A stretch of 64,000 nt of DNA from the NCBI GenBank assembly GCA_021796435.1, contig JAJYXM010000016.1, positions 438,625-502,624 of the forward strand. The letters are read 5' to 3'. Of this stretch, positions 41,273-59,395 are shown in pieces. The position numbers and the translations under genes are program-made. Below the pieces are notes generated by a model. The model saw nothing but the letters and a program-made list of their open reading frames with translations. It was not told the DNA's origin and made no database searches. The stretch is from a bacterium (GTDB lineage Bacteria; Patescibacteriota; Patescibacteriia; 2-12-FULL-60-25). Positions within the stretch are counted from its first letter, which is position 1. Each line of letters begins with the position of its first letter.

Positions 41273-41275
41273 TTT

Positions 41276-42772: not shown

Positions 42773-43575
42773 TGAAGACCAAAAAACAAATCAGCGACGC
42801 ACTTCGTAAGTCTTTCGATCTGTTGGGTGGTGCGGCAAGGGATGAAGAGTCCGAATGGAACAGGCTCGTCTTGACGCTTGGTTTGGCCGATGAACTCTCG
42901 GGCGATCTGGAAGGTAAGCGTTTTTTGGATGTCGGCAGTTCCGTCGGGGTGATGCCTTTGGCGGCGTCCTTCTTCGGTACGCAGAGTTCGTACGGACTCG
43001 ATAAATTCATCTTTCCGGATACTTTCGAGAACCCTTTCAGGATGACCCACGAACAGTTCGAGACGTTGCGCAAGGTGTGGGCGGAAAACAATACCGAGGT
43101 CATAAAACATGACATCAAGGACCCTATGCCGTTGGCCGACAGCTCGGTTGATGTGATCATGTGCAATGCCTTGATCGAACACGTGCATGGTCTGCACAAG
43201 CACCTTTTCTCCGAATTCGAACGTGTCTTGGCGCCGGGTGGGATCGTCATCGTGACGACGCCGAACATCGCCATGTTATTGAAGCGGTTGCGTTTTCTGG
43301 TTGGTCGTACGCCACTCTGGGACTTCAGGGATTATTTCGAATCCGGGAAGGAGTTCACTGGGCACATCCGCGAGTTCACGGTCAGAGAATGTAGGCAGAT
43401 GCTGGAATGGAGCGGATTGGAACCGATCAAAGTATATTCACGCGCGACATATTTCAAATGGAAGTGGCTGCGTAAACCGCACAAATGGATGCAGCTGATG
43501 ACTCAAGGTCTGTCTTTCCTGTCGCCGAACTTCGGAGACTTGGTGATAGCCATAGGGCGTAAGTCGAGGGATTGA
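42772..43575 (+). CDS. Class I SAM-dependent methyltransferase
   Basis: A TAATG overlap with the upstream MT. KRFLDVGSSVGVMPLAA ... VDVIMCNALIEHVHGLHKHLFSEFERVLAPGGIVIVTTPN. Confidence 0.6.
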   Translation: MKTKKQISDALRKSFDLLGGAARDEESEWNRLVLTLGLADELSGDLEGKRFLDVGSSVGVMPLAASFFGTQSSYGLDKFIFPDTFENPFRMTHEQFETLRKVWAENNTEVIKHDIKDPMPLADSSVDVIMCNALIEHVHGLHKHLFSEFERVLAPGGIVIVTTPNIAMLLKRLRFLVGRTPLWDFRDYFESGKEFTGHIREFTVRECRQMLEWSGLEPIKVYSRATYFKWKWLRKPHKWMQLMTQGLSFLSPNFGDLVIAIGRKSRD

Positions 43576-43579
43576 CGAT

Positions 43580-44401
43580 ATGGAGAAGATTAAGGCTACG
43601 GCGACGATGTTGACTTTCAATAATGCTGCGACAGTCGCCAAGAGCTTGGAGTCGGTCAAAGATTTCGACGAAGTGCTCGTACTGGATGGCGGAAGTACTG
43701 ATGGCACTTTAGAGCTTCTGCGGCGATATGGAGCGCGGATAGAGAAACAGTCGGATGCTCCAGGAAAGATTTCGGATTTTACGGCAGTACGCCAGAGGTC
43801 GTTCGAACTGGCTAAACATGACTGGATCTTCTGGATCGATTCGGATGAATACGCGGATGATCGCCTGCTCGTCGAACTGCGTGAAGCAGTCGAACATGGA
43901 GACGCGGATTCCGCCTATCGCGTAGAGCGTGTGCCTATCATCGACGGCAAGATAATCAGGTTCGGTGCCCTGTTGCCTGATAAGATCGTACGTCTGGTGA
44001 ACCGCAAGACCGCGCATTGGGCTAAGAGCAAGCGGGTGCATGAACACGTGACGTTGGATGACAGTGTGGATGTCATCGATCTTCAGGGGAGCATGTTCAC
44101 ACCGTGGGAAAGCCTGGAGGAATATCAAAGACGGGATAAATACTATCTCGGTTTAGCCTTTTCGCGTCCCGTAACACGCAGGCCGTCTCTGTATCGGACG
44201 GTGAAATCGATACTGAAAAATTCGGCCTTAGCCGCATGGTTGCCGATCAAATGGTCTTATCTTGAAGTGCGCCATGGCTTCTCAACGGAAGTGATGCCTT
44301 GGGCATATCAGTGGAGATTCTCAAGATATTATTTGGCTATTGTGAAAGAAAGGCTAAAACAGTATCTTTATGGAAGAAGGTATGTCCCACCTACCGTCTG
44401 A
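43580..44401 (+). CDS. GT2 (GT-A fold) glycosyltransferase
   Basis: ATATMLTFNNAATVAKSLESVKDFDEVLVLDGGSTDGT ... WIFWIDSDEYADD (DxD). Confidence 0.75.
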   Translation: MEKIKATATMLTFNNAATVAKSLESVKDFDEVLVLDGGSTDGTLELLRRYGARIEKQSDAPGKISDFTAVRQRSFELAKHDWIFWIDSDEYADDRLLVELREAVEHGDADSAYRVERVPIIDGKIIRFGALLPDKIVRLVNRKTAHWAKSKRVHEHVTLDDSVDVIDLQGSMFTPWESLEEYQRRDKYYLGLAFSRPVTRRPSLYRTVKSILKNSALAAWLPIKWSYLEVRHGFSTEVMPWAYQWRFSRYYLAIVKERLKQYLYGRRYVPPTV

Positions 44402-45104
44402 ATTTAAGCATCTTGAGGGCAAAGTCTTGAGTAGCCGGGTATACCCCGAATTTTTTAGCTTACGGGGGGATGAGGAAATCCTGAATGTCGGTAGTGGCGA
44501 GGGACCGCAGATGGTGGTATATGCGGGCAGATTCAAGAGTATGTTGGGTGTGGATATAATGCCCGATAGACTGGCTGGATTCAGGAAACTAGGTGACTCG
44601 TTACATCAAAATGTCGAGACGCTGGAATCGAATGTCGAATCCATCGGATTGCCAGATGCGTCATTCGATGTCGTGATGGCGATTGACACCATCGAGCATG
44701 TAGAACATCCGGATAAACTGTTGAGTGAGGTTTTTCGTTTGCTCAAGCCTGGAGGCAGGATGCTGATCACTTTTCCTGCCATGCACGATAAGTTCGTGGA
44801 TGGCTTGTCGGCTTTGAAGGTTTTTTTCACGCGGCAGAAGAAAACGCAGCGCGAGGGTTGGCATCCGGATGACCATCAGCACGAATATCCCGTCGGAAAG
44901 TGGGTGGGTATGGTCGAGGCTGCAGGACTCAGGTCGAAACGTAGCCGAGCGACGACCATGTTCCCGCCGTTGCATCTGTATGGCGTGCCGCGTTTTTGGT
45001 TTTCGTGCGGAATCCTGCACGCTATCGATAAAGCGGTCTGTTCGATCCCGGGCGTGATGAAGCTGGGGCAAACAGTCATGGTCGAATTTGTGAAACCTGT
45101 ATGA
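44370..45104 (+). CDS. Class I SAM-dependent methyltransferase
   Basis: ILNVGSGEGPQMVVYAGRFKSMLGVDIMPDRL ... VVMAIDTIEHVEHPDKLLSEVFRLLKPGGRMLITFP. The start may instead be 44382. Confidence 0.65.
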   Translation: MEEGMSHLPSEFKHLEGKVLSSRVYPEFFSLRGDEEILNVGSGEGPQMVVYAGRFKSMLGVDIMPDRLAGFRKLGDSLHQNVETLESNVESIGLPDASFDVVMAIDTIEHVEHPDKLLSEVFRLLKPGGRMLITFPAMHDKFVDGLSALKVFFTRQKKTQREGWHPDDHQHEYPVGKWVGMVEAAGLRSKRSRATTMFPPLHLYGVPRFWFSCGILHAIDKAVCSIPGVMKLGQTVMVEFVKPV

Positions 45105-46237
45105 AGATTTTTTATGTGACGAACGTCAGGTTTCCGACGGAAAAAGCGCATGGTTGGCAGATAGCTAAGATGTGCGACGCCTTTGCTGCTTTGGGACACA
45201 ATGTGACGTTGGTCGTTCCGGATAGGATAACGCCGATCAAGGAGGATGCACGCAGCTATTATCAATTGACGCAGGAGTTCGAAATAAAGAAACTCAAGAT
45301 CTGGGATGCTTTGGATGTCCGCTGGATACCCAGGCTTCCGGCTTTTCTGTTGACCGAGTGGTCGTTCAAGCGGGCGGTGAAGAAGTGGATGTATAGCGTA
45401 GGTGAGGGAGATGCTTTGGTCATAACGCGCGACCAGTTCTTGGCCAAGCAGTTGGTTCGTCCGGGGTGGAAGGTGATCTTCGAAGCGCATGATATATCTC
45501 CGCGTTTCTTTTGGTTACATCGGAAGTTGGCACGCTGTACTGATCTGCTTGTGGCGAGCAACGAGTGGAAGAAGAATGAGATACTGAAGCGTTGGGGGAA
45601 AGACCTCAAGGGAAAGGTCATCGCGCTGCAGAACGGGATCGAGTTGAAACCCTACCTCGAGATGCCGACGAAAGAAGATGCGAGAAGAACACTCGAATGG
45701 GAAAAGGAAAAAAAGGTGGCTCTGTATACAGGTCATCTGTATGATTGGAAAGGGGTTTATGTCTTGGCTGATGCGAGCAAAGAATTGCCGCTTGGCTCTG
45801 AAGTCGTGATGCTTGGAGGAACCCCGGAAGATGCGAAGAGGATGCGCGAATATGTCGAGAAAAACGATCTGAACAAGATCCGGCTTGTCGCGCATGTACC
45901 GCACAAAGACGTGCTGACATATCTCGCCGCGGCCGACTGTCTGGTCATACCGAATACCGCCAAGTCTTGGAATTCGCTATATACGACATCGCCGATAAAA
46001 TTGTGGGAATACTTGGCGGCGCGACGGCCGGTGGTGGCCAGTGACTTGCCGAGTCTGCGTGAATCAGTCACAGATGAAGAGGTCTTTTTCGTGAAACCGG
46101 ATGATCCACGTGCCTTGGCGCAAGGCATAGAAAGGGCGTGTACTGACGATGGCGGACGGGTGGAAAACGGCTGGAAGAGGGCGCAGAGCCAGACTTGGCA
46201 AGCGCGAGCGAAAAAGATAGTCGAGGCAGTCTTATGA
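45101..46237 (+). CDS. GT4 glycosyltransferase
   Basis: MKIFYVTNVRFPTEKAHGWQIAKMCDAFAALGHNVTLVVPD. The C-terminal half is GT1-like (LVIPNTAKSWNSLYTTSPIKLWEYLAARRPVVASDLPSL). Confidence 0.7.
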   Translation: MKIFYVTNVRFPTEKAHGWQIAKMCDAFAALGHNVTLVVPDRITPIKEDARSYYQLTQEFEIKKLKIWDALDVRWIPRLPAFLLTEWSFKRAVKKWMYSVGEGDALVITRDQFLAKQLVRPGWKVIFEAHDISPRFFWLHRKLARCTDLLVASNEWKKNEILKRWGKDLKGKVIALQNGIELKPYLEMPTKEDARRTLEWEKEKKVALYTGHLYDWKGVYVLADASKELPLGSEVVMLGGTPEDAKRMREYVEKNDLNKIRLVAHVPHKDVLTYLAAADCLVIPNTAKSWNSLYTTSPIKLWEYLAARRPVVASDLPSLRESVTDEEVFFVKPDDPRALAQGIERACTDDGGRVENGWKRAQSQTWQARAKKIVEAVL

Positions 46238-47589
46238 GCAGCGTATATAAGGACATCGCAAAAGGATCGGCCATCATCATGGCTTCGCGTTTGGTGCTCA
46301 AACTTTTTTCCATCGTGAGCTACTTCATGATCCTGCGGGCATTGAGCCTCAAGGATTATGGTTTCGTCTCGTTGGCGCTGTCGATCTCCGGTCCGGCTTT
46401 GTCCATCAGTGGTTTGGGCTTGGATGATCTGCTTTTATCGCAGGGTGCGAGGGCGCGCGGCGAGAAAACATATGGCGAGTTCTCCAGCGTCTTTGGGGGT
46501 TTCGTGCTCGTGCGTTTGTTGATATTGGCAGGGATCACGGCATTACTGCTTTTCATCCGTAGTCTGCTCGGCCAACAATATCTCGAGGTAGTCAACCAAT
46601 ATCTGTGGCAAGCCATCTTGTGGATCTGGGTCGTAAACATCCGTTGGATAGGGGACGGTATGACCCAGATGTTCGAGAAGTTCAAATTGTTCTCTGTAGC
46701 CAATGTCACGGAGAGTGCCTTGCGCGCGGGTATCGTCCTCGTCCTTTATGTCATAGGGCATCTGAATATCGGGACCGTGCTCTGGGCTTACATCCTATCC
46801 AAAGGCCTGCCGACCTTCATGGTGTTGCCCGCCATGAGGCACCTAGGCGGTTGGGGCAGACCGATCCTGAAGATCAAGATGTTTTTTTCGTACCTCAAAC
46901 AGAAGGGCGCTTGGGAAACTGTGCGTATGTTGTCCGGCAGTCTGCTTTCGGGGTTGAACCAATGGATCGTCGCAGGTCTGTTGGGCCTTGAGGCGGTCGC
47001 CATATATAATTTCGCTTCGAGCCTGAATTCCCTGTTGGCGCAATTTTCGCCTTTCCGACAAATCCTTTATCCGATCGTCTCCAGGTTGAGTTCGGAAGCC
47101 GAGTCCGCTTCCGCGTTGGCCAGGAGGATGTCGAAATACTCCATATGGTTGGCGAGCTTATTGCTTATGGCCGCGACTTTTGGAGCGCCTCTGGGCGTAT
47201 GGCTGTTGGCGCCGAAATACCTGAACGCTATCCCGGCATTCTATCTGCTCATGCTTTCACAGCTGACGAATGCGGCGACGGTCTCGCACGGTCCTCTGAT
47301 GTACTCGAACAATGAACAGAAGTATCTGCTGAAGCTGTCGATCTTCGGAACGGTCTCAGGCGTGACGGTCATGCCGCTGCTTACCTGGCTTTTCGGTGTT
47401 TATGGAGCGATCCTCGAGAGCCATTTCTCCACCGTTTTGATCTCTTGGTTGCGAGAGAAACGATTGCGGGAGAAACACGGGATAAAGACTTTCGTCTTTT
47501 CTGACATTTTCGTCATCGATGCATATGACAAGCAGGCGATAAAGAAAGTTTGGCAAGCCGTCGTCCTTAGGTTAAGGAATGCTCTATGA
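46234..47589 (+). CDS. wzx: Polysaccharide biosynthesis protein / Wzx-type flippase (MOP superfamily)
   Basis: ATGA overlap with the upstream GT. There are 12-14 predicted TM helices. The N-terminus MASRLVLKLFSIVSYFMILRALSLKDYGFVSLALSI is typical of the Polysacc_synt family. Confidence 0.6.
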   Translation: MSSVYKDIAKGSAIIMASRLVLKLFSIVSYFMILRALSLKDYGFVSLALSISGPALSISGLGLDDLLLSQGARARGEKTYGEFSSVFGGFVLVRLLILAGITALLLFIRSLLGQQYLEVVNQYLWQAILWIWVVNIRWIGDGMTQMFEKFKLFSVANVTESALRAGIVLVLYVIGHLNIGTVLWAYILSKGLPTFMVLPAMRHLGGWGRPILKIKMFFSYLKQKGAWETVRMLSGSLLSGLNQWIVAGLLGLEAVAIYNFASSLNSLLAQFSPFRQILYPIVSRLSSEAESASALARRMSKYSIWLASLLLMAATFGAPLGVWLLAPKYLNAIPAFYLLMLSQLTNAATVSHGPLMYSNNEQKYLLKLSIFGTVSGVTVMPLLTWLFGVYGAILESHFSTVLISWLREKRLREKHGIKTFVFSDIFVIDAYDKQAIKKVWQAVVLRLRNAL

Positions 47590-48977
47590 AGAAGATATTC
47601 ATCACGCTTTCGAGAGGTTTTTTGGCGCGGAACATATTGCAGACCGATATTTTTTCCGACCTCTTGGCTCGGGGAGACGAGTTGGTCATCGCGACGCCCG
47701 GGGTGGATGACCCTGATTTCATCAAGACTTTTTCTCGTCCGGGCGTAAAGATCATCGGTTTTCACGTCCCTAGGTGGACCTGGTTGGACAGGAGGTTGGC
47801 GGGGTTCCACCACAATCTTCTGTGGAGCGGCACCGTCAGATTCACGGCTAAGTATGGGATATACAAGTCGGGAAAATTCCAGTCTTTCCGATATGTCTTA
47901 CAGCTGTTGCTGTTCAAACCGTTATCTTACATTCCGCAGTTGCGCTTGATTGTGCGTTGGCTAGATTCCATCCTTCGTCCTGCTCCGGAAGAGGCGCTTG
48001 AGCAGTTGCGGGCGGAAAAACCGGATTTGGTTTTTTTGACGAATCCCATGGAGGATGCGGATAGCTTCTACATCAAAGCCGCTAAGCAGCTCGGCATGAC
48101 TACGGTCGGTCTGGTGAAGAGTTGGGACAACATGTCGAAGACGAGCTTCCGGATTCTGACCGACTACGTATTGGTCTGGGGAGAATACATGAAAGAAGAG
48201 GCTATGAAGTATCAGCTCTATCCGAAAGATAGGATCTTCGAGGTCGGAGTGCCGCAGTTCGACATCTACAAGACGCGGAAAGGATTGAGGCCAAAGGATG
48301 AATTCCTCGAATCAATGGATTTGGATGTGGGGCGCAAGACCATCATCTTCGGATCAGAAGGGAAGGTCACGCCGTATGATCCGGAGATAGTCGCCGGTAT
48401 CGCTGACATGATCGAACGAAACGAGTTGGTCGAGCCATGTCAGGTGCTGGTACGGCCGCATTTCGGATATAAGAATGATGCGGATAAGTTCGATCCTGTG
48501 GCCGCGCGGCGACATCTTGCCATGGATAGGTCCAACACGCCGCGACCCGTATTTTATGATCAGTGGGATTATTCCCGTGAACATTTTTTGCGCTTGGCCG
48601 AGATACTGCAGGCAGGTGATGTGATGGTGACGACTGCCTCGACTTTGGCTATAGACGCGGTCATGTTCGGCATGCCGGTGATCGCCATCGCTTTTGACGG
48701 AGAGCATCATTTTTCCCACGAGGAATCGGTTGCGCGATGGTATGAGACAGAGTACTATAGCCACGTCCTGAAGACCGGAGCCGTCGTAATCGTCAGGAAT
48801 TTCGCGGAATTACGGGCGGCGTTGAACGCGATCTTGGAGAAGCCTGACGAAAGGAAGACGCAAAGAGCTGAGCTGGTAAGGCGGTTCGCCGGAAGATTCG
48901 ACGGGAAAGCAGGCGAGCGTATAGCGGCGTATCTCTCCGAGCTGGCCGAAACAGGCAAAATAACAAAAGAATTATGA
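47586..48977 (+). CDS. GT-B-fold surface-carbohydrate biosynthesis protein (TagF/CDP-glycerol glycerophosphotransferase-like or related)
   Basis: ATGA overlap. FGSEGKVTPYD ... VLVRPHFGYKN ... GDVMVTTASTLAIDAVMFGMPVIAI resembles the C-terminal nucleotide-binding half of TagB/TagF-like enzymes. This is a weak family call. Confidence 0.4.
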   Translation: MKKIFITLSRGFLARNILQTDIFSDLLARGDELVIATPGVDDPDFIKTFSRPGVKIIGFHVPRWTWLDRRLAGFHHNLLWSGTVRFTAKYGIYKSGKFQSFRYVLQLLLFKPLSYIPQLRLIVRWLDSILRPAPEEALEQLRAEKPDLVFLTNPMEDADSFYIKAAKQLGMTTVGLVKSWDNMSKTSFRILTDYVLVWGEYMKEEAMKYQLYPKDRIFEVGVPQFDIYKTRKGLRPKDEFLESMDLDVGRKTIIFGSEGKVTPYDPEIVAGIADMIERNELVEPCQVLVRPHFGYKNDADKFDPVAARRHLAMDRSNTPRPVFYDQWDYSREHFLRLAEILQAGDVMVTTASTLAIDAVMFGMPVIAIAFDGEHHFSHEESVARWYETEYYSHVLKTGAVVIVRNFAELRAALNAILEKPDERKTQRAELVRRFAGRFDGKAGERIAAYLSELAETGKITKEL

Positions 48978-49750
48978 GTGAAAAATCAGCGACATACGAA
49001 AAAAAGACGGGCGCTTTATACGGTTCATTGTTTACGGCGTACGACGACAAGAAGTTCGAGGAATCGGTCGCATTGTTCGGGATGCGCCATAAGAAGTGGG
49101 GCATCGATACCGAATGGTTCCGCGGCAAGGAGTGTCTGGATGCGGGCTGTGGTGGGGGAAGATATCTGATCGCCCTTTCGCGTCTGGGCGCGAAACGCGT
49201 GGTAGGCATAGACATCAGCGCCGATGCCGTCGCGGCAGCTAACCAGCGCATACAGGATAAGGGATTCGGTGGAATCGCCGAGGCGAAGCAGGCTTCGGTC
49301 CTTGAGATACCTTTTCCGGACGCGTCTTTCGACTATGTCGTCTCATCCGGCGTGATCCATCACACACCTGATCCGAAAAAAGGTTTCGACGAATTAGTCC
49401 GTGTCTTGCGACCCGGCGGAAAACTGTTCTTGTCGGTTTATGGACGCGGCGGGTTGGTCTGGATGGTGAATGACATCGGACGATTGATTGCACGTGTAGT
49501 ACCTTTCAAGACGATGGAGGCGCTGTGGAAGGCGATCGGAATCCCGGCCAATAAACGCTACAACTATCTCGATAATATGTATGTGCCGTACTGCTACCGC
49601 TATACCGAAAAGGAGATACGGAAGTGGTTGGCTGACGCCGGGTTCGAGAATGTACAACGTCTGAAGTTCGAACGTTACGATTATTCCACCTTGTGGTCGC
49701 GTATCATGCACGGTGAAGGCTGGTTGCAGTTCTACGCGGATAAAAAATAG
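48974..49750 (+). CDS. Class I SAM-dependent methyltransferase (paralogue of 50460..51299)
   Basis: CLDAGCGGGRYLIALSRLGAKRVVGIDISADAV ... DNMYVPYCYRYTEKEIRKWLADAGFENVQRLKFERYDY. Confidence 0.75.
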   Translation: MSEKSATYEKKTGALYGSLFTAYDDKKFEESVALFGMRHKKWGIDTEWFRGKECLDAGCGGGRYLIALSRLGAKRVVGIDISADAVAAANQRIQDKGFGGIAEAKQASVLEIPFPDASFDYVVSSGVIHHTPDPKKGFDELVRVLRPGGKLFLSVYGRGGLVWMVNDIGRLIARVVPFKTMEALWKAIGIPANKRYNYLDNMYVPYCYRYTEKEIRKWLADAGFENVQRLKFERYDYSTLWSRIMHGEGWLQFYADKK

Positions 49751-49756
49751 GAATTT

Positions 49757-50449
49757 ATGGGTTTGGGCTTCTTTACGACCGATCAGATGCCCGATAGACA
49801 AGCTGAAGTCAGTGGAGAACTGAAGCGACAGCCGTCTTGGGTTTTACGAGATGGCTTGTTGCAGCGGGTCTTAGGTGGCTTGGATAAGACGGCGTCGATA
49901 GTGGATTTGGGTAGCGGCAGCGGAGAGACCGAGAGGCAGCTCTTACAATTAGGATTCACGAATATTACGACGGTCGATATCGGGGATTATCTGGATTTTC
50001 CGGGTAAAGACACAGCGGCAATCAAGCAAGTCAGGGCCGACCTCTCGAAAGACGTGTTGGATATCCCCGCTGAATCCGCTGACGTGGTCTTGGCGTTACA
50101 GATGCTGGAGCATCTGGAGAATCCGTGGCATTGTGCGCGGGAGATTTTGCGTATCGCAAAGCCTGGTGCGATCATTTTCGTCTCGATCCCTGATGCGACG
50201 AGTTTCATTAACCGGATGATCTATCTTTTCAGGGCTGACGTACCCACGTATGCAGTGAAGAACAACCATATCTCGTTATTCACCAAGGCGCTGTTCAGTA
50301 AGCTTTGGGGTGGAAAGGTAGAGTTCAAAACGACGTTCCATTCCGAGGCGTATTTCAAGCTCTTCAACCGGAAGCTGAGGTTCAACGGTAATTCGTGGTT
50401 CGGCAGGCTGTTCGCCCGAAAAGTGGCGTATTGCTTAATGCGGCGATAA
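49757..50449 (+). CDS. Class I SAM-dependent methyltransferase
   Basis: IVDLGSGSGETERQLLQLGFTNITTVDIGD ... VVLALQMLEHLENPWHCAREILRIAKPGAIIFVSIPD. Confidence 0.65.
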   Translation: MGLGFFTTDQMPDRQAEVSGELKRQPSWVLRDGLLQRVLGGLDKTASIVDLGSGSGETERQLLQLGFTNITTVDIGDYLDFPGKDTAAIKQVRADLSKDVLDIPAESADVVLALQMLEHLENPWHCAREILRIAKPGAIIFVSIPDATSFINRMIYLFRADVPTYAVKNNHISLFTKALFSKLWGGKVEFKTTFHSEAYFKLFNRKLRFNGNSWFGRLFARKVAYCLMRR

Positions 50450-50459
50450 CCGTTAATAT

Positions 50460-51299
50460 ATGCCCGTTATGAATGAAACACCTATCCTCAAAATACCATT
50501 ACGACCTGACTGGAAGTTCGTCCCGACCAACATAGAAGATTCGACGGGCAAGATATATGACAATCTTTTTTCCGCTTACGACGAGAAGCGTTTTGAGGAG
50601 TCGGTGGAGCTGTTCCCGATGCGCCAGCAGAAGTGGGGCATATCGCTGGATTGGTTCAAGGATAAGGTGTGTTTGGATGTAGGCTGTGGCCAAGGCCGTT
50701 TCGTGACTGCGCTAGGTAGGCTGGGAGCCGCAAAAGCCATCGGCGTTGATATCAATGAGAAAGGTCTGGAGGCTGGCCGGAATCGCCGTTGGTTCAAGGA
50801 GTTGAATAACGTCGAGCTGATGAACTCTTCGGCCGGAGATCTGCCGTTCGTGGACAGCTATTTCGATTACGTCATCTGTTCTGGAGTGCTTTTGCTCATG
50901 CCCGAACCAAAGAAAGGTTTTGATGAGTTGGTGCGCGTGACCAAACCTGGAGGACGTATTTTCCTTTCGATGTACGGCAAAGGCGGACTCAAATGGGCGG
51001 TGAATGACTTCTTCCGCTTCTTCCTGATCCGTTGGGTGCCATTCGCGTTCACCGAGAAGGTTTTCAAGGCCGTAGGCGTGCCGCCGAATAAGCGCTACAA
51101 CATTTTGGATAACCTTTATACTCCATATACGCATCGCTACACCGAGAAAGAGATCCGCAAATGGTTCGAGGATGCTGGTTTCGAGAATATCCGCCGCGTG
51201 AAGTTCGAGCGTTATGATTACGAGACTTGGCAGAGCAGGTTGATTCATGGGGAGGCGTGGATACAGATAATCGCCGATAAGAAACCGGCAAACACTTAA
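50460..51299 (+). CDS. Class I SAM-dependent methyltransferase (paralogue of 48974..49750)
   Basis: CLDVGCGQGRFVTALGRLGAAKAIGVDINEKGL ... DNLYTPYTHRYTEKEIRKWFEDAGFENIRRVKFERYDY. Confidence 0.75.
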   Translation: MPVMNETPILKIPLRPDWKFVPTNIEDSTGKIYDNLFSAYDEKRFEESVELFPMRQQKWGISLDWFKDKVCLDVGCGQGRFVTALGRLGAAKAIGVDINEKGLEAGRNRRWFKELNNVELMNSSAGDLPFVDSYFDYVICSGVLLLMPEPKKGFDELVRVTKPGGRIFLSMYGKGGLKWAVNDFFRFFLIRWVPFAFTEKVFKAVGVPPNKRYNILDNLYTPYTHRYTEKEIRKWFEDAGFENIRRVKFERYDYETWQSRLIHGEAWIQIIADKKPANT

Positions 51300-51406
51300 A
51301 TCTGGCGTGCTACGTCGTTAGAACCTGCGCTACTCGCTCTGCGTACGCTTGAGTACGCGTCGCTCCGTTGCTCGGTTTTTCCTAGTATCACATCCAGATT
51401 AAAGAG
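51296..51406. repeat. Hairpin-forming intergenic element, family 2 (copy E), between the MT gene and neuB
   Basis: Terminal inverted repeat ttaaatctgg / ccagattaaa. Core ctcgctctgcgtacgcttgagtacgcg and cgctccgttgctcggtttttcct. It starts at the MT stop codon. Confidence 0.75.
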
Positions 51407-51460
51407 TTTGCTTACGCGAACCAGTTGACGGGATGAGAAAACTCCCTTAATCTCATCTAG

Positions 51461-52594
51461 ATGTCGATATTTTTCGATTCTCCGCAAGGAAAACGCGGGT
51501 TGGGCGAAGGCCATCCGGTTTTTGTCATTGCCGAGATCGGCAAGAATTTCATCCAGACGGAAGAGCCTAAGACGACCGAGGAATATCTCGAGAACGCGAT
51601 AGCTCTGGTGAAAGCGGCGAAGGATGCGGGGGCTGATGCGGTGAAATTCCAGACGCATAACTTCGTGGATGAGCAGGCGGATATCGATGTGGTCTCTCCG
51701 CATTTCCGTGGGTCGGACAGGTACAACTGGGTCAAGCGTAATGACCTTTCGACTCCGGTCGAGACTTTCTGGAGGCCTTTGAAACAAGCTTGCGACGAAA
51801 TCGGCATAACTTTCTTTTCGACTCCCATGAGCCGTGGTGCGGCGCATAAGCTGGATCAGATAGAGCCGGTATTATGGAAAGTCGGTTCGGGAGACGTCTT
51901 GGATTTCGTCATGCTTGATCATCTGCGTACGAGCGGGAAACCCATCATCATCAGCTCCGGCATGAGTACGCTGGAAGAGGTCGATAAGTCGATCGCTTTC
52001 TTAAAGGAAAAGACGGATCAGGTCGTGCTGCTGCATTGTGTTTCGCGCTATCCTTGTCCACCGGAAGACCTGCATCTAAAGACGATCGAATTCTTCAAGG
52101 AGCGCTATGGCATCCCTGTCGGATTTTCCGATCATTCGACCACTATCCATTCGTCCATGGCGGCAGTAGCTCTTGGCGCGTCGGTGATCGAGAAGCATTT
52201 TTCTTTCGGTAGGGAACTTTGGGGCTCTGATCATAAGGTGTCATTGACCCCGCAAGAGATGGCGGAGCTTGTGAGCGGCATACGCCGGATGGCTGAGGAT
52301 CGAGTCTATAGGGATGAGATCTTGCGTCATGAGTTGGTTCAGAAGGGGATGGGTGAGAAAGAGAAGGTGATGGACGAAGGTGAAGCCGTATTCCGTCCGT
52401 TATTCCGTAAGACGCTCGTCGCGGCGCATGACTTGCTGGCCGGGACTGTTATCGAAGAATACCATCTGCACGCCAAACGTCCGCAAGCACATCTGTTCGG
52501 TCTAGCGTCAGAGGAATACGGGAGGATATTGGGAAGAAAACTGAAGCACGATCACAAGGGCGGGGAGCCTTTTGCGGAAAACGATTTTGAATAA
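51461..52594 (+). CDS. neuB: N-acylneuraminate-9-phosphate / N-acetylneuraminate synthase family (NeuB/PseI/LegI-type nonulosonic acid synthase)
   Basis: NeuB motif VIAEIGKNF ... GADAVKFQTHNF. C-terminal SAF domain TLVAAHDLLAGTVIEEYHLHAKRP. Confidence 0.8.
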   Translation: MSIFFDSPQGKRGLGEGHPVFVIAEIGKNFIQTEEPKTTEEYLENAIALVKAAKDAGADAVKFQTHNFVDEQADIDVVSPHFRGSDRYNWVKRNDLSTPVETFWRPLKQACDEIGITFFSTPMSRGAAHKLDQIEPVLWKVGSGDVLDFVMLDHLRTSGKPIIISSGMSTLEEVDKSIAFLKEKTDQVVLLHCVSRYPCPPEDLHLKTIEFFKERYGIPVGFSDHSTTIHSSMAAVALGASVIEKHFSFGRELWGSDHKVSLTPQEMAELVSGIRRMAEDRVYRDEILRHELVQKGMGEKEKVMDEGEAVFRPLFRKTLVAAHDLLAGTVIEEYHLHAKRPQAHLFGLASEEYGRILGRKLKHDHKGGEPFAENDFE

Positions 52595-52676
52595 TTATTT
52601 TTCGAGCTTTAGGGCCTAGTAGGCTTGACAAAAACGCCAAAAAAGAGTAAGACGCTTTGAACAAGGGGAGGGTCGA

Positions 52677-53618
52677 ATGAATCTCTTTGGCGTACTTTTG
52701 ACATTATTCGGGGCTTTGATGGTGGCGATATACGCCATCGCGCTTCGCGCCATGCTGCATCGAGGCAAAAGCGCAGAAGAAAGGCCGGAAGAGAGTGTGC
52801 TGAACGGCGGCGTCATGACAGTCGCAGCCGTCTCGCTCTTCATCTTGGTGTCCGTCACGCGGACTTCGATAGATCTTGCTCCTGGTTTCTGGAAGTATGT
52901 CGCAATCACCGGATTGCTGAACATACTGATCAGTTACTTGGGGTTCAAGGCGCTGCAGACCAAGGATGACGTATCGCTTGTCGTACCGATCAAGGACACG
53001 ACGCCGGCGGCGATCGTCCTGACCTCTTGGATCATCGTGGGGGAACGCCCATCGACGATGGGGTACGTCGGTATCCTGTTGCTCGTGGCCGGTACCTACA
53101 CCCTGAACATCCAAGGCCTGATCGATCAGTTGCACAGCGGACGCTGGACCTGGAAGGCGTTTTTGGAGCCTTGGTTGGCTCTAGGCAGGTCGCGTGGTGT
53201 GCGTTTGGCGTTCGCTGCTTCGGCAGTCGGTTGCCTAGCGATACCGTTCGATGGCCTCGCTTCGCGATCCGGCCCGCCGCTCTTCGCGCTTGCCTGCGTC
53301 ATCAGCTTCTCTGCAGTCGCGCACTCGATTCGGGCATTGGCCTCGGGTGCGGGAAGGCAATTCTTCGATCGACGGCGCGGCATGCCTTATGCGGCGTTGG
53401 TCGGAGGGGCATTGTTCGCGGCTGCCACCGGTCTCTTCTGGTGGTCGTTCCGGTTCTTGCTCGTCGCGTATCAGGCGACCGTCAAACGCTCGGAGACGTT
53501 CTTCGTGATCGTTCTCGCTTTCCTTATCCTTCGTGAGCGGAAATCTTTCCGGTCACGGATGGTGGCGGTCTTGCTTATGTGCATCGGTACCATCCTCATC
53601 GCAAGGTCACGTGGTTGA
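52677..53618 (+). CDS. EamA/DMT-superfamily-like 10-TM membrane transporter
   Basis: Two repeated 5-TM halves. No specific motif was recognised. Confidence 0.45.
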   Translation: MNLFGVLLTLFGALMVAIYAIALRAMLHRGKSAEERPEESVLNGGVMTVAAVSLFILVSVTRTSIDLAPGFWKYVAITGLLNILISYLGFKALQTKDDVSLVVPIKDTTPAAIVLTSWIIVGERPSTMGYVGILLLVAGTYTLNIQGLIDQLHSGRWTWKAFLEPWLALGRSRGVRLAFAASAVGCLAIPFDGLASRSGPPLFALACVISFSAVAHSIRALASGAGRQFFDRRRGMPYAALVGGALFAAATGLFWWSFRFLLVAYQATVKRSETFFVIVLAFLILRERKSFRSRMVAVLLMCIGTILIARSRG

Positions 53619-53630
53619 AAGGGAATCGTC

Positions 53631-54734
53631 ATGCAGACACAGACAACACAGGGTCAGGATCCGAGGAATTCAGTGTTTCAGGGCTTGTCGGGAATCCTCT
53701 ACGCGGCGTGCGAGCCCATCGCGCCTTCATACCGCATGCAGTCGCAGACGGCGGCAGCATGCGCCGACGCAGTCTGTCCTGGTGGTCTCGCGGGCAAGCG
53801 GGTGCTCGACATCGGCTGCGGATTCGGCACAACGGCGCTCGCCATCGCGGCGCATGCGCCAGCCGAGATCGTCTGCGTCGACACCTCGCAGGTGCATCTG
53901 AACCTGCTCGAGCACACCTTCTTCGGGGATACGAGCGCCGAATCCTTCCTGCGCAGCGTGCAGGCGGAGGAGGTACTCGGGAAGTACTTCGAGCCGACGG
54001 TCGAACTCCTCAGCTCCATGCGGCGCGAGTTCCGAGCGAGCCGCTTCGTCCGGCGGGGTGGGAAGCTCTATACGTTTCTCGCTTCTTCGCTGGATCTCAC
54101 GCCCGAGATGATCGGGGGCGAGGTCGACGCGATCGTGGGGAACAACTTCCTGCACTGGCCATGCAACCAGCGTCGCGCGCAGTACGTCAAGGACGGCGAC
54201 GCGGAGAATGCGCTTGAGCGTGCCAAGGACGATGCGCTCAAGGCTTTGGCTGCACTGAAGAAGCCGGACGGCGTCATGGCTCTGCTCGAACCGATCGACT
54301 TCGTCCGTACCGATGACACCGCGGCGTACCAGGATATGGTGGCGCACGCCTTGGCCAACCATCCGGCGTTCGTGGCCCTGCATTCCGGGATCAACGATCG
54401 CTTGAGGGTGCGCTACGGCATGGACCGCAGGATGCCGTCTCTCTCGCCGATCTTCGAGCTCGAAGCGATGCCAGCGCTTTTCCGGCGAAACGGCCTCGAG
54501 CTCATGAATGTGGCCCAGTTCGAGCGCGTCATGCCCGTAACGTATGGTGACGCCTTGGACTTCATGTTCGTGCGCCTTCCCATGGTGCTGGGCGGCCTCG
54601 ACATCCCGTTCGACGCCAAGCTCGCCCTGGCCAAGGAGATCGAGATCAGGCTGCGCTACGAGGCGACCGAGATGAAGCCCGAGATCCTCAGCACTCCGCT
54701 CCACGGCCAGTACTTCGTCTTCCTGGCCAAGTAG
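53631..54734 (+). CDS. Putative class I SAM-dependent methyltransferase with a long C-terminal extension
   Basis: Motif I VLDIGCGFGTTALAIAAHAPAEIVCVDTS. This gene has markedly higher GC than the island average. Confidence 0.5.
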   Translation: MQTQTTQGQDPRNSVFQGLSGILYAACEPIAPSYRMQSQTAAACADAVCPGGLAGKRVLDIGCGFGTTALAIAAHAPAEIVCVDTSQVHLNLLEHTFFGDTSAESFLRSVQAEEVLGKYFEPTVELLSSMRREFRASRFVRRGGKLYTFLASSLDLTPEMIGGEVDAIVGNNFLHWPCNQRRAQYVKDGDAENALERAKDDALKALAALKKPDGVMALLEPIDFVRTDDTAAYQDMVAHALANHPAFVALHSGINDRLRVRYGMDRRMPSLSPIFELEAMPALFRRNGLELMNVAQFERVMPVTYGDALDFMFVRLPMVLGGLDIPFDAKLALAKEIEIRLRYEATEMKPEILSTPLHGQYFVFLAK

Positions 54735-54855
54735 TCCTTCCTCAATAATCGCCTGTCGGTGCTCACCGGCAGGCGATTTCCATTTTCATACCTTGGCTTG
54801 ACCAGAATCCAATTTTGGACTAAGGTCTGACATCCCTTTCACAAGGAGTAGTGGA

Positions 54856-55920
54856 ATGTCGGAGAATCAGGTTTCTGTTGTTTTCGTCACCAAAGACAAG
54901 GGCGGATTCGAGGCCAGCTACCCGCTGGCTCAAGAGCTGAAGCGTAGGGGCCACCAGGTCAAGGTCTTCGCTGAAGGCGTCTCCCTCGAACTCTGGAGAG
55001 CGTCCGGTCTCGAGCCGACCTTCGCTGGTTCCCTCGACTTCAGGCGTGAGCCGAACGAGGTGGATGCCAAGGTGCTGCTTTCCGTGGTCAATCCAGACAT
55101 AGTCGTCGCCACGATGGGTTCGCCCATCAACCTCGAACTCGAGTGCGGGAAGGCGGCCAACGATCTCGGCATCCCTTTGGCCATCATCGAGGATGTGTGG
55201 GGGACGTCGGGACGCATGACCTGCCCGGCCCAACTGGCCTTCACAGTCGACGACTTCGGTGTGCGACTCATGCGTGCACTTCCTCAATTCGCCGCAGCCA
55301 AGATCATCGTCGCCGGTAATCCTGGCGTAAGCGCGTTCGAGGTTCCGTCGGGAATCGAGGAGCGGGTAGAGCGGCTGCGTGAAGAGAAGGGGACGGTCGT
55401 CATGTTCGCCGGCGAAGGACCGGGTACCTCTGAGCTCCTGGTCATGACGTTCCTTTCGCTACGCAAGTCGAAAGAGCGTTGCGTCGTCGTGCCGCGCTTC
55501 CACCCCAAGTACCTCAACGTCCCTGAGAACAGGGTACTCTGGGAGGGGATCGTCGAGGCGATGGCGGGTGACAACGTCGCGGTCACCCGGGTCTTCGATG
55601 ACGTGTCGGATACGCGTGCCCTTGCGGCGCTATCTGACGTCACGATTTCCGGTTCGAGTACCGTCCTGCAATATGCGGCGAAGTTCGGCCGCATGTCGGT
55701 CAGCATCACGACGGAACTGACACGCAAGTTGCTCGGCGAGCAGGTGGCTTACAACGAGTACCCCGGCATCAAGCTCGGAATCGCCGTGCCTCTGCGTGAA
55801 CCCTGCGACATCATCTCTCTTGCGCGCGAAGCAGCTCCTGGAATGCGTGTGAATGCCAAGCACGTCTTCCGCGTGTTGCCGATCGAGGAGATCGCCGACG
55901 CCGTCCTTTCCCTGGCCTGA
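54856..55920 (+). CDS. Hypothetical protein, possibly GT-B-like
   Basis: VVFVTKDKGGFEASYPLAQELKRRGHQVKVFAEG resembles the N-terminus of Rossmann-like GT-B proteins. No diagnostic motif was found. Confidence 0.35.
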   Translation: MSENQVSVVFVTKDKGGFEASYPLAQELKRRGHQVKVFAEGVSLELWRASGLEPTFAGSLDFRREPNEVDAKVLLSVVNPDIVVATMGSPINLELECGKAANDLGIPLAIIEDVWGTSGRMTCPAQLAFTVDDFGVRLMRALPQFAAAKIIVAGNPGVSAFEVPSGIEERVERLREEKGTVVMFAGEGPGTSELLVMTFLSLRKSKERCVVVPRFHPKYLNVPENRVLWEGIVEAMAGDNVAVTRVFDDVSDTRALAALSDVTISGSSTVLQYAAKFGRMSVSITTELTRKLLGEQVAYNEYPGIKLGIAVPLREPCDIISLAREAAPGMRVNAKHVFRVLPIEEIADAVLSLA

Positions 55921-56018
55921 ATCTTCAGGCGTTCCTCTTCTTGCCTTAGCCCGCACTCTTGTCTTAGAGATTGCGGGCTTTCGTATTACCAAAATTTAGG
56001 CTATCGTGTCGATTGACT

Positions 56019-56447
56019 ATGACGAATAAATGCCTCTATATCCCAAAAGAACGAATCGATGAGACCCTGGCTCAAAGTCCACAAACGGGAAAAAGATTGC
56101 TTGAACCGCTTAAATCCTTTTCGGCCGAGCATGCTGCACCTTTTAATATCCTCGAGGATTGTCAGGTCTCGAACGACGCCGAAATCCATCAGCATGAGTC
56201 GGATCTTTGGTACTGCATCGAAGGCGAAGTGAGGTTCGTTTGCGGAGGGCAAATGGTCGACCCTTGGTTCAAGCAGTTGCCGGACGGTACAGAAGACAGG
56301 CGAGAGATCAAAGCCAAGACCATCGAGGGCGGTGAGGAAATCCTGTTGCATGCCGGCGATTGGCTTTGGATCCCCGCAGGTGAAGCGCACCAGCATTTTT
56401 GCGCAGATACGGCGCGTTTAGTGATAATCAAGATCCCGAAAGTTTGA
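56019..56447 (+). CDS. Cupin-domain protein
   Basis: Cupin motifs EIHQHESDLWYCIEGEV and LHAGDWLWIPAGEAHQH. The start was chosen at MTNKCLYIP (the ORF track's 55971 adds 16 aa). Confidence 0.55.
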   Translation: MTNKCLYIPKERIDETLAQSPQTGKRLLEPLKSFSAEHAAPFNILEDCQVSNDAEIHQHESDLWYCIEGEVRFVCGGQMVDPWFKQLPDGTEDRREIKAKTIEGGEEILLHAGDWLWIPAGEAHQHFCADTARLVIIKIPKV

Positions 56448-56529
56448 GGTTCGATTCTTGAGGTCGTTTTTCCTGTGCCGCCTGTTGACTTTTGGGCGGA
56501 AAAAAAGTAGTTTAGGGAGGCAAAATATC

Positions 56530-57723
56530 ATGTCTGACATCGAGAATATCGACTCCGAGATGAGGCGGAAACGTAAGATCTGCGTCGTCATCATCGGTCG
56601 GGCGAACTACGGACGCATCAAGACCGCCTTGGAAGCGATCCGTAAACACCCTGATCTGGAACTGCAGATAATCGGCGGTTCGTCTTTGTTATTGGAACGG
56701 CACGGCAAGGGAGTGGAAGTGATGCGAGCCGAGGGTTTTGAAGTCGATCATGAGGCTTATATGGCGGTGGAAGGAGAGACGCCTCTCACCATGGCTAAGT
56801 CGGTCGGTCTGGGCATCTTGGAGATCACTAATGCCTTGAACCGATTGAAGCCGGATGTCGTGCTTACGATCGCTGACCGTTTCGAGACCATCGCTACCGC
56901 TATCGCCGCGTCATACATGAACATCCCCGTCGCGCACACGCAGGGCGGTGAAGTCACAGGATCCATCGATGAACATGTACGCCACGCGGTCACCAAATTG
57001 GCGCATATCCATTTTCCGGCGACTCAGTTGAGCGGCGAGCGTCTGATCAAGATGGGGGAAGAGCCGGATACGGTTCATGTGACAGGTTGCCCGGCCATCG
57101 ACATCGTCGCGCAGATGGACAGGAATTTCACGCCGGAAGAGATCGAACAACTCGGTTATCAAGGCGTGGGTCCGAAAGTCGACGTGACCAAGCCATATGT
57201 CCTGATGATGCAGCATCCGGTGACGACCGAATATGGTTCGGGCCATGATCAGGTGATGGAGACCGTCGAAGCCATCAAGATGACCGGGATGCAGGCGATC
57301 GCCTTGTGGCCGAACATCGATGCCGGTTCGGACCAGATCTCGAAGGCGCTGCGTATCTTCCGTGAATTCAATCCTGAAGTGCCGGTACGTTTCTATAAGA
57401 ATTTCCCGCCAGAGACCTATGCGCGGGTCTTGGCGAATGCGGCTTGCGCCGTCGGTAACTCGTCCTCTTTCATCCGCGAAGGGAGTTATCTCGGTACCCC
57501 AGCCATAATCGTCGGCACGCGGCAACACAATCGTGAGCATGGGAGGAACGTGCTGATGGATGTCCCACACGATCGCCAAGCGATATTCGAGGCACTGCAG
57601 AGACAGCTGGCGAACGGACGTTACGAATCGGATCCAGTATTCGGCGATGGCAGGGCCGGTGAGAGGATAGCCGAGATACTGGCGCGCGCAGAATTCCGGG
57701 TCCAGAAGAGCATCACCTATTGA
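56530..57723 (+). CDS. neuC: UDP-N-acetylglucosamine 2-epimerase (hydrolysing), NeuC family
   Basis: NeuC signature GGEVTGSIDEHVRHAVTKLAHIHF. The start was chosen at MSDIENID, ATG 56530. Confidence 0.75.
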   Translation: MSDIENIDSEMRRKRKICVVIIGRANYGRIKTALEAIRKHPDLELQIIGGSSLLLERHGKGVEVMRAEGFEVDHEAYMAVEGETPLTMAKSVGLGILEITNALNRLKPDVVLTIADRFETIATAIAASYMNIPVAHTQGGEVTGSIDEHVRHAVTKLAHIHFPATQLSGERLIKMGEEPDTVHVTGCPAIDIVAQMDRNFTPEEIEQLGYQGVGPKVDVTKPYVLMMQHPVTTEYGSGHDQVMETVEAIKMTGMQAIALWPNIDAGSDQISKALRIFREFNPEVPVRFYKNFPPETYARVLANAACAVGNSSSFIREGSYLGTPAIIVGTRQHNREHGRNVLMDVPHDRQAIFEALQRQLANGRYESDPVFGDGRAGERIAEILARAEFRVQKSITY

Positions 57724-57728
57724 TATAT

Positions 57729-58679
57729 ATGTCTAAAACCGTCATCCTCGAACCGACTAATTACAGCCCCAAATCGATTGCGCTATATTCGCAACTGGGT
57801 AGTGTCAGTTCTGAAGCATTGGAGGGCGAGGCGCTGGATAGGGAATTGGCTGATGCGGAGGTTATTGTCCTCCGTTTGGCTTTTTATATCGACGCGGCGT
57901 TCATGGACAAAGCCCCTAAGCTCAAGATCCTGGCGACGCCTACGACCGGACTGAACCACATCGATGTCGTCGAAGCCGAAAAGCGCGGTATCAGGATAAT
58001 CAGCCTTAAAGGTTGGCGCGAAGTGACTGAAAAGATATATGCGACATCTGAACACACGATCGGGCTCATGTTGGCTTTGTTGCGGAAATTGCCGTTCGCC
58101 CATAACCACGTAGTGGCTGGAGGTTGGGACCGAAACCTTTTCGTCGGCCATGAGATCAGCGGCGCTACGATCGGTATGCTCGGTTGCGGCCGTCTGGGTT
58201 TTCGTGTGGCGGAGATACTCGACAAGATGGGCGCCAAGGTGATCGCTTACGATCCATACCAGAAGAATATCCCGACATGTGTGGAGATGGTCAGTGATCT
58301 TCAGGCCTTTTTGGGTCGTGCCGACATCGTTTCCGTACACGTATATCTTACGGATGAGACGACGCACATGTTGAGCAAACAGGAATTCGCTTGGATGAAA
58401 CCCGGGGTCAGGCTGGTCAACACGGCGCGTGGACAGATCATCGACGAAGTCGCGTTGCTTGAGGCTCTGGAGTCGGGGCATCTAGCCGGAGCGGCGTTGG
58501 ATGTGTTGGAGAACGAGGCGGCGGACGGGAAATTCCTGGAACATAACGCTTTGCGTGGATTCGCGGCCACGCATGACAATCTGATCCTGACGCCGCATAT
58601 AGGCGGCGCGACGCGTGAGTCGATGGCGATGACGGAAGACGCGATCGCCGGAGCCGTGGTCGAAGCCATGAATGAATAA
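57729..58679 (+). CDS. D-isomer-specific 2-hydroxyacid dehydrogenase family (PGDH/GDH-like), NAD-binding
   Basis: GATIGMLGCGRLGFRVAEILDKMGAKVIAYD (GxGxxG), the catalytic region VNTARGQIIDEVALLEALESGHLAGAALDVLENE, and the terminal LTPHIGGAT. Confidence 0.7.
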   Translation: MSKTVILEPTNYSPKSIALYSQLGSVSSEALEGEALDRELADAEVIVLRLAFYIDAAFMDKAPKLKILATPTTGLNHIDVVEAEKRGIRIISLKGWREVTEKIYATSEHTIGLMLALLRKLPFAHNHVVAGGWDRNLFVGHEISGATIGMLGCGRLGFRVAEILDKMGAKVIAYDPYQKNIPTCVEMVSDLQAFLGRADIVSVHVYLTDETTHMLSKQEFAWMKPGVRLVNTARGQIIDEVALLEALESGHLAGAALDVLENEAADGKFLEHNALRGFAATHDNLILTPHIGGATRESMAMTEDAIAGAVVEAMNE

Positions 58680-58684
58680 ATATT

Positions 58685-59392
58685 ATGAACGATTTGAAGG
58701 TATTGGCCGTGATCACGGCGCGTGGAGGCTCAAAAGGAATACCACGCAAGAACATAAAGGATCTGGCGGGAAAACCGCTGATAGCCTGGACCATAGAGGC
58801 GGCGCAGGGGAGTAAACTCTTGACCGACTATCTTGTATCGACGGATGATCAGGAGATCGCGGACATCTCGCGGCAGTGCGGTGCACCTGTGCCGTTCATG
58901 CGTCCGGCTGAACTGGCGACAGATACGGCGACGAGTATGGGCGTGGTGCAGCATGCCTTGAAGTGGCAAGAGGAAAATGAGGGTAAGACATATGACGCAT
59001 TAATGATCCTGCAGCCGACGAGTCCGTTGCGTTCTTCGCAGGATATCGACGGTTGTATAGAGAAGATGGCTGAGACGGATTGTGATTCTGTCATGAGCAT
59101 GGTCAAACTGACCGACTTCGCGGCCAAGAAACTCAAGGTGCTGGATGGTGACAAGATAAGACCGTGGATGGAGGACGAGGGTAGAGAAAGCAGCTCGCGC
59201 CAGGCTTTGGGTGACGTGTACAAACGTAATTGCGCCGTATATCTGACTAAGACGGAAAGGATCATGGAAGGGGATCTGTTCGGTCATGATTCGAGGGCTT
59301 ATGTCATGCCTGAAGATGTCTCTACGGACATCAATACTCCTTTGGATTTTGAGTTACTGGATTTTTTGATGCGAAGAAAGTTGATGAAATAA
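58685..59392 (+). CDS. neuA: N-acylneuraminate cytidylyltransferase (CMP-nonulosonic acid synthetase)
   Basis: LAVITARGGSKGIPRKNIKDLAGKPLIAWTIEAA and ILQPTSPLR, the classic CMP-NeuAc synthetase motifs. Confidence 0.85.
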   Translation: MNDLKVLAVITARGGSKGIPRKNIKDLAGKPLIAWTIEAAQGSKLLTDYLVSTDDQEIADISRQCGAPVPFMRPAELATDTATSMGVVQHALKWQEENEGKTYDALMILQPTSPLRSSQDIDGCIEKMAETDCDSVMSMVKLTDFAAKKLKVLDGDKIRPWMEDEGRESSSRQALGDVYKRNCAVYLTKTERIMEGDLFGHDSRAYVMPEDVSTDINTPLDFELLDFLMRRKLMK

Positions 59393-59395
59393 ACT

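Follow-up and report, generated by a model that had tools for sequence, protein, structure and literature searches.

An apparently undescribed palindromic repeat family with two copies in a patescibacterial glycan operon

What are the two long hairpins that interrupt the glycan operon of a bacterium of the Patescibacteriota, each adjoining the stop codon of one gene and preceding the start of another? They lie in a 64,000-nucleotide stretch, hereafter the window, of contig JAJYXM010000016.1 (GenBank assembly GCA_021796435.1, positions 438,625 to 502,624 of the forward strand) and are called E and F here. A preliminary description, made from the sequence of the window, had recognized the two as related and offered three suggestions for their nature: intra-operon attenuators or terminators, RNA-processing sites, or a miniature mobile element. 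Of these the last fits best, and we put at roughly 60% the probability that E and F are two copies of a non-autonomous palindromic intergenic repeat family of the REP (repetitive extragenic palindromic) or ERIC (enterobacterial repetitive intergenic consensus) kind. This reading is drawn from the existence of many copies, tandem arrays, near-identical copies at unlinked loci, an empty site, presence, absence or replacement of elements between strains, and the lack of any link to gene function.

The two elements and their shared fold

Both elements are described on the forward strand. As an entire hairpin, E occupies positions 51290–51409 (120 nt), its closing stem, P1, pairing 51290–51305 with 51394–51409 (AAACaCTTaAATCTGG/CCAGATTaAAGaGTTT), and it scores 102.4 bits with the covariance model of the family, R1. 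Element F occupies 61237–61407 (171 nt; 91.4 bits) and is closed by a perfect 17-bp P1 (GAGACTTTTAATTCTGG/CCAGAATTAAAAGTCTC; 61239–61255 with 61389–61405) supplemented by two wobble pairs. Each folds into four helices, at -37.8 kcal/mol for E (z = -2.7) and -86.7 kcal/mol for F (z = -6.6), in agreement with the hairpins originally proposed. Counted from TGG to CCA, the core measures 94 nt in E (51303–51396) and 139 nt in F (61253–61391), that is, 94 + 45 nt; the surplus is a GC-rich palindrome (61310–61354, previously put at 40 nt) that is nested directly 3′ of the apex hairpin and is without counterpart in E or in any other copy among the loci fetched for comparison. The apex hairpins read UGCGUAC-GCUUGA-GUACGCG in E (51340–51359) and UGCGUAC-GCUCCA-GUACGCG in F (61290–61309), their helix being invariant or compensated among the copies.

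The two elements can be aligned end to end and were also recovered as one direct-repeat family by a repeat analysis of the window. Within the 64 kb, the core blocks GCTCTGCGTACGCTNNAGTACGCG and GTCGCTCCGYTGCTCGG each occur at E and F only, with shuffle expectations of 0.00 and 0.04 matches; the two form a genuine repeat family. The short end motifs that had been quoted as terminal inverted repeats (TTAAATCTGG/CCAGATTAAA in E and TTAATTCTGG/CCAGAATTAA in F) call for a different interpretation: alone they are not significant, at least two matches being seen in 15 of 100 shuffles, and they are merely the inner end of the longer closing stem, a stem that varies in sequence among copies yet remains complementary. 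Since the stem of E reaches past these motifs, the TAA stop codon of the preceding methyltransferase gene (51297–51299) sits inside it. At F, the TGA stop codon of AsnB paralogue 3 lies at 61235–61237, and similarity to a sister strain stops at its first base, 61235.

All copies of the family fold as a rod-like hairpin of about 120 nt. Its consensus opens with P1, a closing stem of 12–19 bp of free but complementary sequence ending in UGG/CCA; next inward, C faces AU in a small asymmetric loop, which is followed by two helices of 3 bp each and by an internal loop rich in pyrimidines, its 5′ side bearing YGTC and its 3′ side a UUUCC-like run. Above these stand an inner stem of free sequence and, at the top, the apex hairpin CGUAC-N6-GUACG. 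Covariation across these helices is pronounced, with 87% paired cells as against 25–46% when the partners are slid, and 132 double-change cells as against 16–43. Copies from one genome (locus L007) can share P1 yet hold unrelated, perfectly complementary inner stems. The strand bearing TGGCG is pyrimidine-rich and its complement purine-rich.

Copies, docking sites and turnover between strains

A search pattern fitted to three known copies (TGGCG-N34-CGTACG-N4-AGTACGC) was run on the GTDB representative genomes and matched 17 loci, of which 13 are clear homologues. These 13 share YGTC and CATCCA, motifs that lie outside the pattern, and come from metagenome-assembled genomes (MAGs): two of Gammaproteobacteria, five of Clostridia, one of Phascolarctobacterium and one of Saccharimonadia. 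The 94-nt span from TGG to CCA recurs in most copies, across phyla. The preliminary description had left the existence of other copies, and conservation in relatives, to be checked; their presence in the sister strain and in three other phyla favors a real family. The covariance model R1, run on 231 kb of sequence (the window plus the fetched loci, which carry L numbers here), gave 41 matches at an E-value of at most 1, of which about 36 can credibly be assigned to the family. Local density reaches 4–5 copies per 8 kb (L006, L007 and L010), near-identical copies stand at unlinked loci of the same genome (L011/L012/L016 and L009/L019), and as many as four units can follow one another in tandem on the same strand (L021, L022 and L006), in arrays that include decayed units without the apex. 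In the Phascolarctobacterium MAG, four tandem units (L021, positions 1–700) fill the spacer from the 3′ end of the 23S rRNA to the 5S rRNA (579–695), antisense to the rRNA.

The family is apparently undescribed and catalogued by no Rfam family. Rfam 15 returned no family at gathering score on the window, and on 12 related loci this score was reached only by unrelated 5S rRNA and glmS ribozyme; its sub-threshold matches over E, F and the L022 array are noise. The exact 20-nt core has no occurrence in the GTDB representative genomes and a single chance match, inside a coding region, in the JGI metagenomes, while E and F found nothing past a 27-nt chance match in phage and plasmid collections and the family pattern had no match in IMG/VR. 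A protein search with the translations of spurious open reading frames (ORFs) in the elements, joined from several phyla, likewise gave no matches.

The copies share a distinctive placement. At about 16 independent sites, the upstream gene on the same strand ends within a few bases of the element: relative to the final base of its stop codon, the model begins at -8 to +6 nt. The distance from element to next gene ranges from 8 to ~600 nt. The upstream genes are unrelated: they include frr, smc, ftsY and malQ, as well as genes for a tetratricopeptide repeat (TPR) protein, an oxidoreductase and a PadR-family protein. In several copies the 5′ end of the element itself supplies the stop codon, as cTGAc in L009 and L019 and as a TAA within P1 in L007, L014, L022 and E of the window. 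The methyltransferase C-terminus changes correspondingly, with KKPANT before the stop in the window as against KKI in L003 and KKK in L005. Orientation relative to the upstream gene is consistent in ~13 of 15 loci; the exceptions are L008, in which the element is opposite to both neighbors, and L021 with its four units antisense to the rRNA. In most copies, the strand that folds better (see below) is antisense to the upstream gene. Some Clostridia copies have TA at both ends, where it belongs to the palindrome.

In the window, the Pfam assignments agree with the gene context first described and with the position of both elements next to stop codons: a methyltransferase (50460–51299), E and NeuB (51461–52594) follow one another at the first site, and AsnB (59396–61237), F and a methyltransferase with its real start at 61433 at the second. 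An ATG at 61259 falls inside F and gives the downstream methyltransferase a false N-terminal extension. The elements had been thought to occupy the sole sizeable gaps in this gene string; however, gaps of 82–143 nt are also found at 52595, 54735, 55921 and 56448, two of which hold ordinary hairpins of a GC stem and a T-run, unlike E and F. These two (54747–54778 and 55948–55981), GC-rich perfect stems followed by T-runs and terminator-like in appearance, lie inside the glycan gene string and are kept in the sister strain.

That the source belongs to the Patescibacteria agrees with a DUF5667 protein of the window, whose best named relatives are from Patescibacteria and Uhrbacteria, and the NeuB protein is on record from an NCBI contig of 1.52 Mb. 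The sister strain is represented by L003 (from the ENA), which has the gene order of the window and is partly confirmed by a separate assembly, L004; L002, an independent Logan assembly, is identical to the window over 41461–62594. Each of the two alleles is present in independent assemblies, L002 agreeing with the window and L004 with L003. By BLAST, the window is 93.9% identical to L003 over 41889–51284 and 98.6% over 51447–61235 and 61432–62698, and the alignment breaks precisely at E and F. The step in identity at E, from 93.9% on its left to 98.6% on its right, suggests a recombination break point at the element. The segment of the window that fails to align at E (51285–51446) comprises the last four methyltransferase codons, E and ~40 nt downstream; L003 carries a different family member there, which keeps the TGGCG-to-apex spacing of 34 nt and has a closing stem of its own (GGGCTcTCGCGTTTGG/CCAAACGCGAaAGCCC). 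The core of this copy is only 67% identical to that of E; E is closer to F (76%) and to a Saccharimonadia copy (70%). At the unaligned segment around F (61236–61431), the spacer of L003 measures 93 nt and carries two CGTC/TGTC-tagged REPs as a tail-to-tail dimer (19779–19834). A third variable junction, after AsnB paralogue 2 (41252–41888), bears a NUDIX ORF and a small hairpin in the window, and instead of these a family member in L003 (272–410) that starts right after a TAA and has a small GC palindrome nested beside its apex. The NUDIX ORF extends over ~41276–41818, and AsnB paralogue 2 ends in FMSDYSN in the window versus FC in L003. GC-rich palindromes are nested beside the apex in two copies, on opposite sides: that of L003 (CCTGCCtaccGGCAGG, 320–340) and the 45-nt one of F.

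Locus L029 comes from a more distant relative that shares this gene order; there, the stop codon of AsnB and the start of the methyltransferase overlap (ATGCTTGA), and hence the F site is empty. Judged by the overlapping genes of relatives at this junction, F is an insertion. Before neuB, L029 has a plain hairpin (CGGCTCA..TGAGCCG, then TTTTT), as does L005 (ATAGCGTCC..GGACGCTAT, then TTTCG); since relatives have a simple terminator at this junction, E may have invaded a transcript boundary or assumed its role. Taken as a family, the copies settle at the 3′ ends of ORFs, mostly in one orientation, form tandem arrays and turn over on the time scale of strain divergence.

Mobile repeat, structured RNA or boundary signal

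If E and F are non-autonomous repeats of the REP or ERIC kind, they would be co-transcribed with the glycan operon as stable RNA hairpins between cistrons, and a hairpin at such a boundary could protect the upstream 3′ end, give a processing site for a double-strand RNase, or uncouple translation. Their movement may then proceed by single-strand mobilization of the HUH/RAYT type rather than by cut-and-paste transposition, the former fitting better with the lack of conserved ends and of target duplications, with the hairpin ends and with the strand bias.

Several points weigh against this reading. Co-transcription, and any effect of E and F on the mRNA, are deduced from the sequence. No transposase or other associated protein was found in Pfam scans of the loci, a genome-wide search not having been made. 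The flanks of 20 copies, when listed, have no consistent direct repeat, so the target-site duplication that the preliminary description proposed to look for is not evident. In the source genome, two copies are seen in 64 kb, and 63 kb of related loci (L023–L025) hold none. That TGGCG and the apex look invariant is in part a product of the search pattern; copies found with the model do vary there. In 29 of 32 copies, the more stable fold is that of the strand opposite the mRNA (mean -48.5 versus -40.2 kcal/mol), which also has more G.U pairs (97 versus 57); this would be unexpected if the mRNA-sense hairpin were the selected form. Finally, REP families and miniature inverted-repeat transposable elements (MITEs) are normally lineage-specific, and a core fixed at 94 nt from phylum to phylum is more suggestive of selection on a functional RNA. 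For selfish repeats, the fixed length with its conserved junction loops, the folding of the opposite strand, and the free yet often perfectly paired stems are all unusual.

Such features could be accommodated if the family were a widespread, uncatalogued structured nucleic-acid element whose 94-nt core is recognized by one universal partner. This might be an RNase or other RNA-binding factor that acts at coding ends, or else an HUH-type enzyme of single-stranded DNA that is directed to sites close to stop codons. We consider this reading doubtful; if true, it would explain the equal length and the junction motifs in Patescibacteria, Clostridia, Negativicutes and Gammaproteobacteria, and the precise docking on stop codons.

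It is also unlikely that the elements are a dedicated structured RNA, namely a cis-regulatory element of 3′ untranslated regions or an unrecognized class of small RNA, whose loops and apex would bind a widely conserved partner, for instance an RNase, a component of the ribosome or some other RNA-binding protein, and whose spread would be secondary. This explanation draws on the fixed 94-nt length and the conserved unpaired motifs over four phyla, on the strong covariation in the free-sequence stems, and on strandedness: R1 gives 102 bits on one strand versus 8 bits for the reverse complement, orientation is consistent in most loci, and the conserved C/A opposition beside UGG/CCA would, on the reverse strand, be a G.U wobble beside a bulged A. 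However, the neighboring genes have nothing in common, and hence no logic of a regulon emerges; the elements are dispensable and are exchanged for unrelated hairpins between strains; the arrays contain decayed, apex-less units; and no Rfam family matches. Moreover, the consensus helices contain just 23 G.U cells of 500, next to 17 A.C and 390 Watson-Crick cells. This scarcity of G.U suggests a DNA palindrome kept symmetrical, for instance by template switching, of which it would be expected, and is less typical of helices selected as RNA.

Less probable still is an intra-operon terminator or attenuator, in which the hairpin would stop or pause RNA polymerase after the upstream gene. The elements do stand directly after stop codons, the relatives L029 and L005 have their plain terminator-like hairpin at the E junction, and a TTGAC-N17-TAAnCT box can be read by eye between E and neuB in both strains. 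Yet neither element has the GC stem and U-tract of an intrinsic terminator: the sequence after the closing stem is GCTTACG in E and TTGTTTCG in F, and a terminator scan made no plus-strand call at either. Nor does a promoter scan make a call at the box between E and neuB. The ordinary terminator-like hairpins of the same operon look different, the genes at the F site overlap in L029, where no boundary of transcription units would be expected, and the family is also found antisense inside a 23S–5S rRNA spacer.

A further view would regard the hairpins as recombination junctions at the level of DNA, which mark or promote the exchange break points of glycan gene blocks in the manner of cassette borders. 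Consistent with it, all three breaks in similarity between the window and L003 fall at a stop codon beside such an element, identity rises from one side of E to the other, and the NUDIX ORF of the window takes the place of the L003 hairpin at the same junction; but in other phyla the family follows housekeeping genes rather than variable glycan loci, the Pfam scans reveal no recombinase near the elements, no hybrid sites flank the NUDIX insertion, and core sites of the attC type are absent as read from the sequence, which together make it a very unlikely account.

Several specific identities were considered and rejected. Classical MITEs do not agree with closing stems that are wholly different between copies (AAACACTTAAATCTGG, GAGACTTTTAATTCTGG, GGGCTCTCGCGTTTGG and CTGACGCTCTCATTTGG), each self-complementary, or with the lack of a target duplication. 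Integron attC sites would show AAC/GTT cores (RYYYAAC ... GTTRRRY), which are missing at the stem bases of E, F and the L003 copy at the E site, and no integrase is encoded among the Pfam-scanned neighbors. A small ORF from a conserved reverse-strand ATG reads ATG-TGA in E, and its frame is not kept across copies. Derivation from 5S rRNA, which the 118-nt length and the L021 array near a 5S rRNA brought to mind, finds no Rfam 5S signal on any copy.

The window contains another hairpin family (1401–1494, 1510–1600, 1620–1700 and 23131–23219; also 15470–15570 of L025), to which E and F show no kinship, R1 scoring 3 bits or less there. Its members have a conserved non-palindromic loop of ~40 nt (CTGCGGGGCTCGTTTCAGYCTATCTCGAACACATCCTCG) within perfect stems of 24–25 bp of unrelated sequence. 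At the orthologous site of a related species (L025; flanks 77–94% identical), the loop is kept and the stem is wholly different, again perfect. Three tandem units follow a TrmB-like ORF, with no Nop or Tas protein nearby. In arrays of TIGR-Tas stem-loops, a Nop-domain Tas protein is a neighbor and the loops have box C/D motifs flanking variable 9-nt spacers (PMC12045711). That identity was rejected, as no Nop domain is found near the hairpin array of the window, E or F, and the sequences that vary form paired stems rather than loop spacers. The closing stem of F and the 24–25-nt stems of this other family were also dismissed as guide-like spacers, having no exact match in IMG/VR. Elsewhere in the window, two large ORFs (2484–6866) encode Gly-rich nonamer repeats and thrombospondin type-3 repeats (Pfam TSP_3), and positions 503–630 hold a short array of ACGAAT-type repeats.

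Comparison with known repeat systems

Among the closest parallels to E and F are REPs, which lie near the 3′ ends of ORFs and may contribute the stop codon (Di Nocera et al. 2013, PMC3733652). A REP unit is 20–40 bp long, with a stem of 8–9 bp (starting with AT in the CGTC families), a loop of 4–5 nt, a CCA-like tail and an unpaired CGTC/TGTC or GTAG tag at one end, and the CGTC REPs have no known dedicated transposase (PMC3733652). Like REPs and their composites (bacterial interspersed mosaic elements, BIMEs, and REPINs), the present elements are intergenic palindromes without target duplications; they lie a few bases from where the upstream ORF ends and may provide its stop codon, they occur as dimers or clusters, and they can be nested in larger palindromes. 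As a class, REPs and REPINs are present in high copy number per genome and go with a RAYT transposase; the local density of the present family is 4–5 copies per 8 kb at most. A partial likeness to the REP tag may lie in the unpaired YGTC that most copies have at the 5′ side of the inner stem: F has CGTC, E has CGTT, most others have C/TGTC and the Gammaproteobacteria copies have none, the tag being internal, not terminal. On the other hand, a REP is a unit of 20–40 bp with a single stem, whereas E and F have 120–170 nt, four helices and a 94-nt core; one arm only is tagged, and hence they are not dimers of two REPs; and REP families are largely lineage-specific, while this family is common to four phyla. 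The dimer at the F site of L003 serves as a positive control here, as it agrees with the published REP architecture in every point. A tail-to-tail pair of CGTC/TGTC REPs is also present in the window itself (32592–32657), between two convergent or adjacent minus-strand ORFs; both it and the L003 dimer have the tag, a 9-bp stem starting with AT, a CTTGA loop and a CCNG tail.

ERICs, or intergenic repeat units (IRUs), of Enterobacteriaceae and Vibrio are imperfect palindromes, ~127 bp long, that lie between the genes of operons and are transcribed; some have internal insertions at fixed sites, and the RNA hairpins into which they fold affect the mRNA according to their orientation. Between these and E and F there is no apparent resemblance in sequence; ERICs are known only from gamma-proteobacterial families, and their ends are conserved, as opposed to the free-sequence stems here. 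Correia elements (NEMIS) of Neisseria and other MITEs are hairpins of ~100–160 bp that lie beside genes, are co-transcribed and RNase III-processed, and show insertion polymorphism between strains. What distinguishes them is that their terminal inverted repeats are conserved, serving as transposase-binding sites, and that a target duplication, TA or another, flanks them; neither feature was found in the E/F family. Intrinsic terminators, including the mycobacterial TRIT repeated motifs, place a hairpin right after a stop codon. E and F are likewise directly downstream of stops, and relatives have a simple terminator hairpin at the E junction; however, the two lack a U-tract, are far longer, have interrupted helices and, in the case of F, stand between genes that overlap in L029.

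REP, ERIC and Correia repeats are usually confined to a genus or family, and their origin and spread are still debated. What sets the present family apart is a core of the same length in four distant lineages, including the ultra-small Patescibacteria, together with docking on the stop codons of unrelated genes and replacement between strains that are 98.6% identical. In the glycan locus, the elements mark strain-variable junctions of surface-glycan genes and create spurious ORFs and false N-terminal extensions, and R1 could be used to annotate further copies in MAGs. Thus, beside the better-known repeats, this family lends itself to study of how such elements move and how they affect the transcripts of operons.

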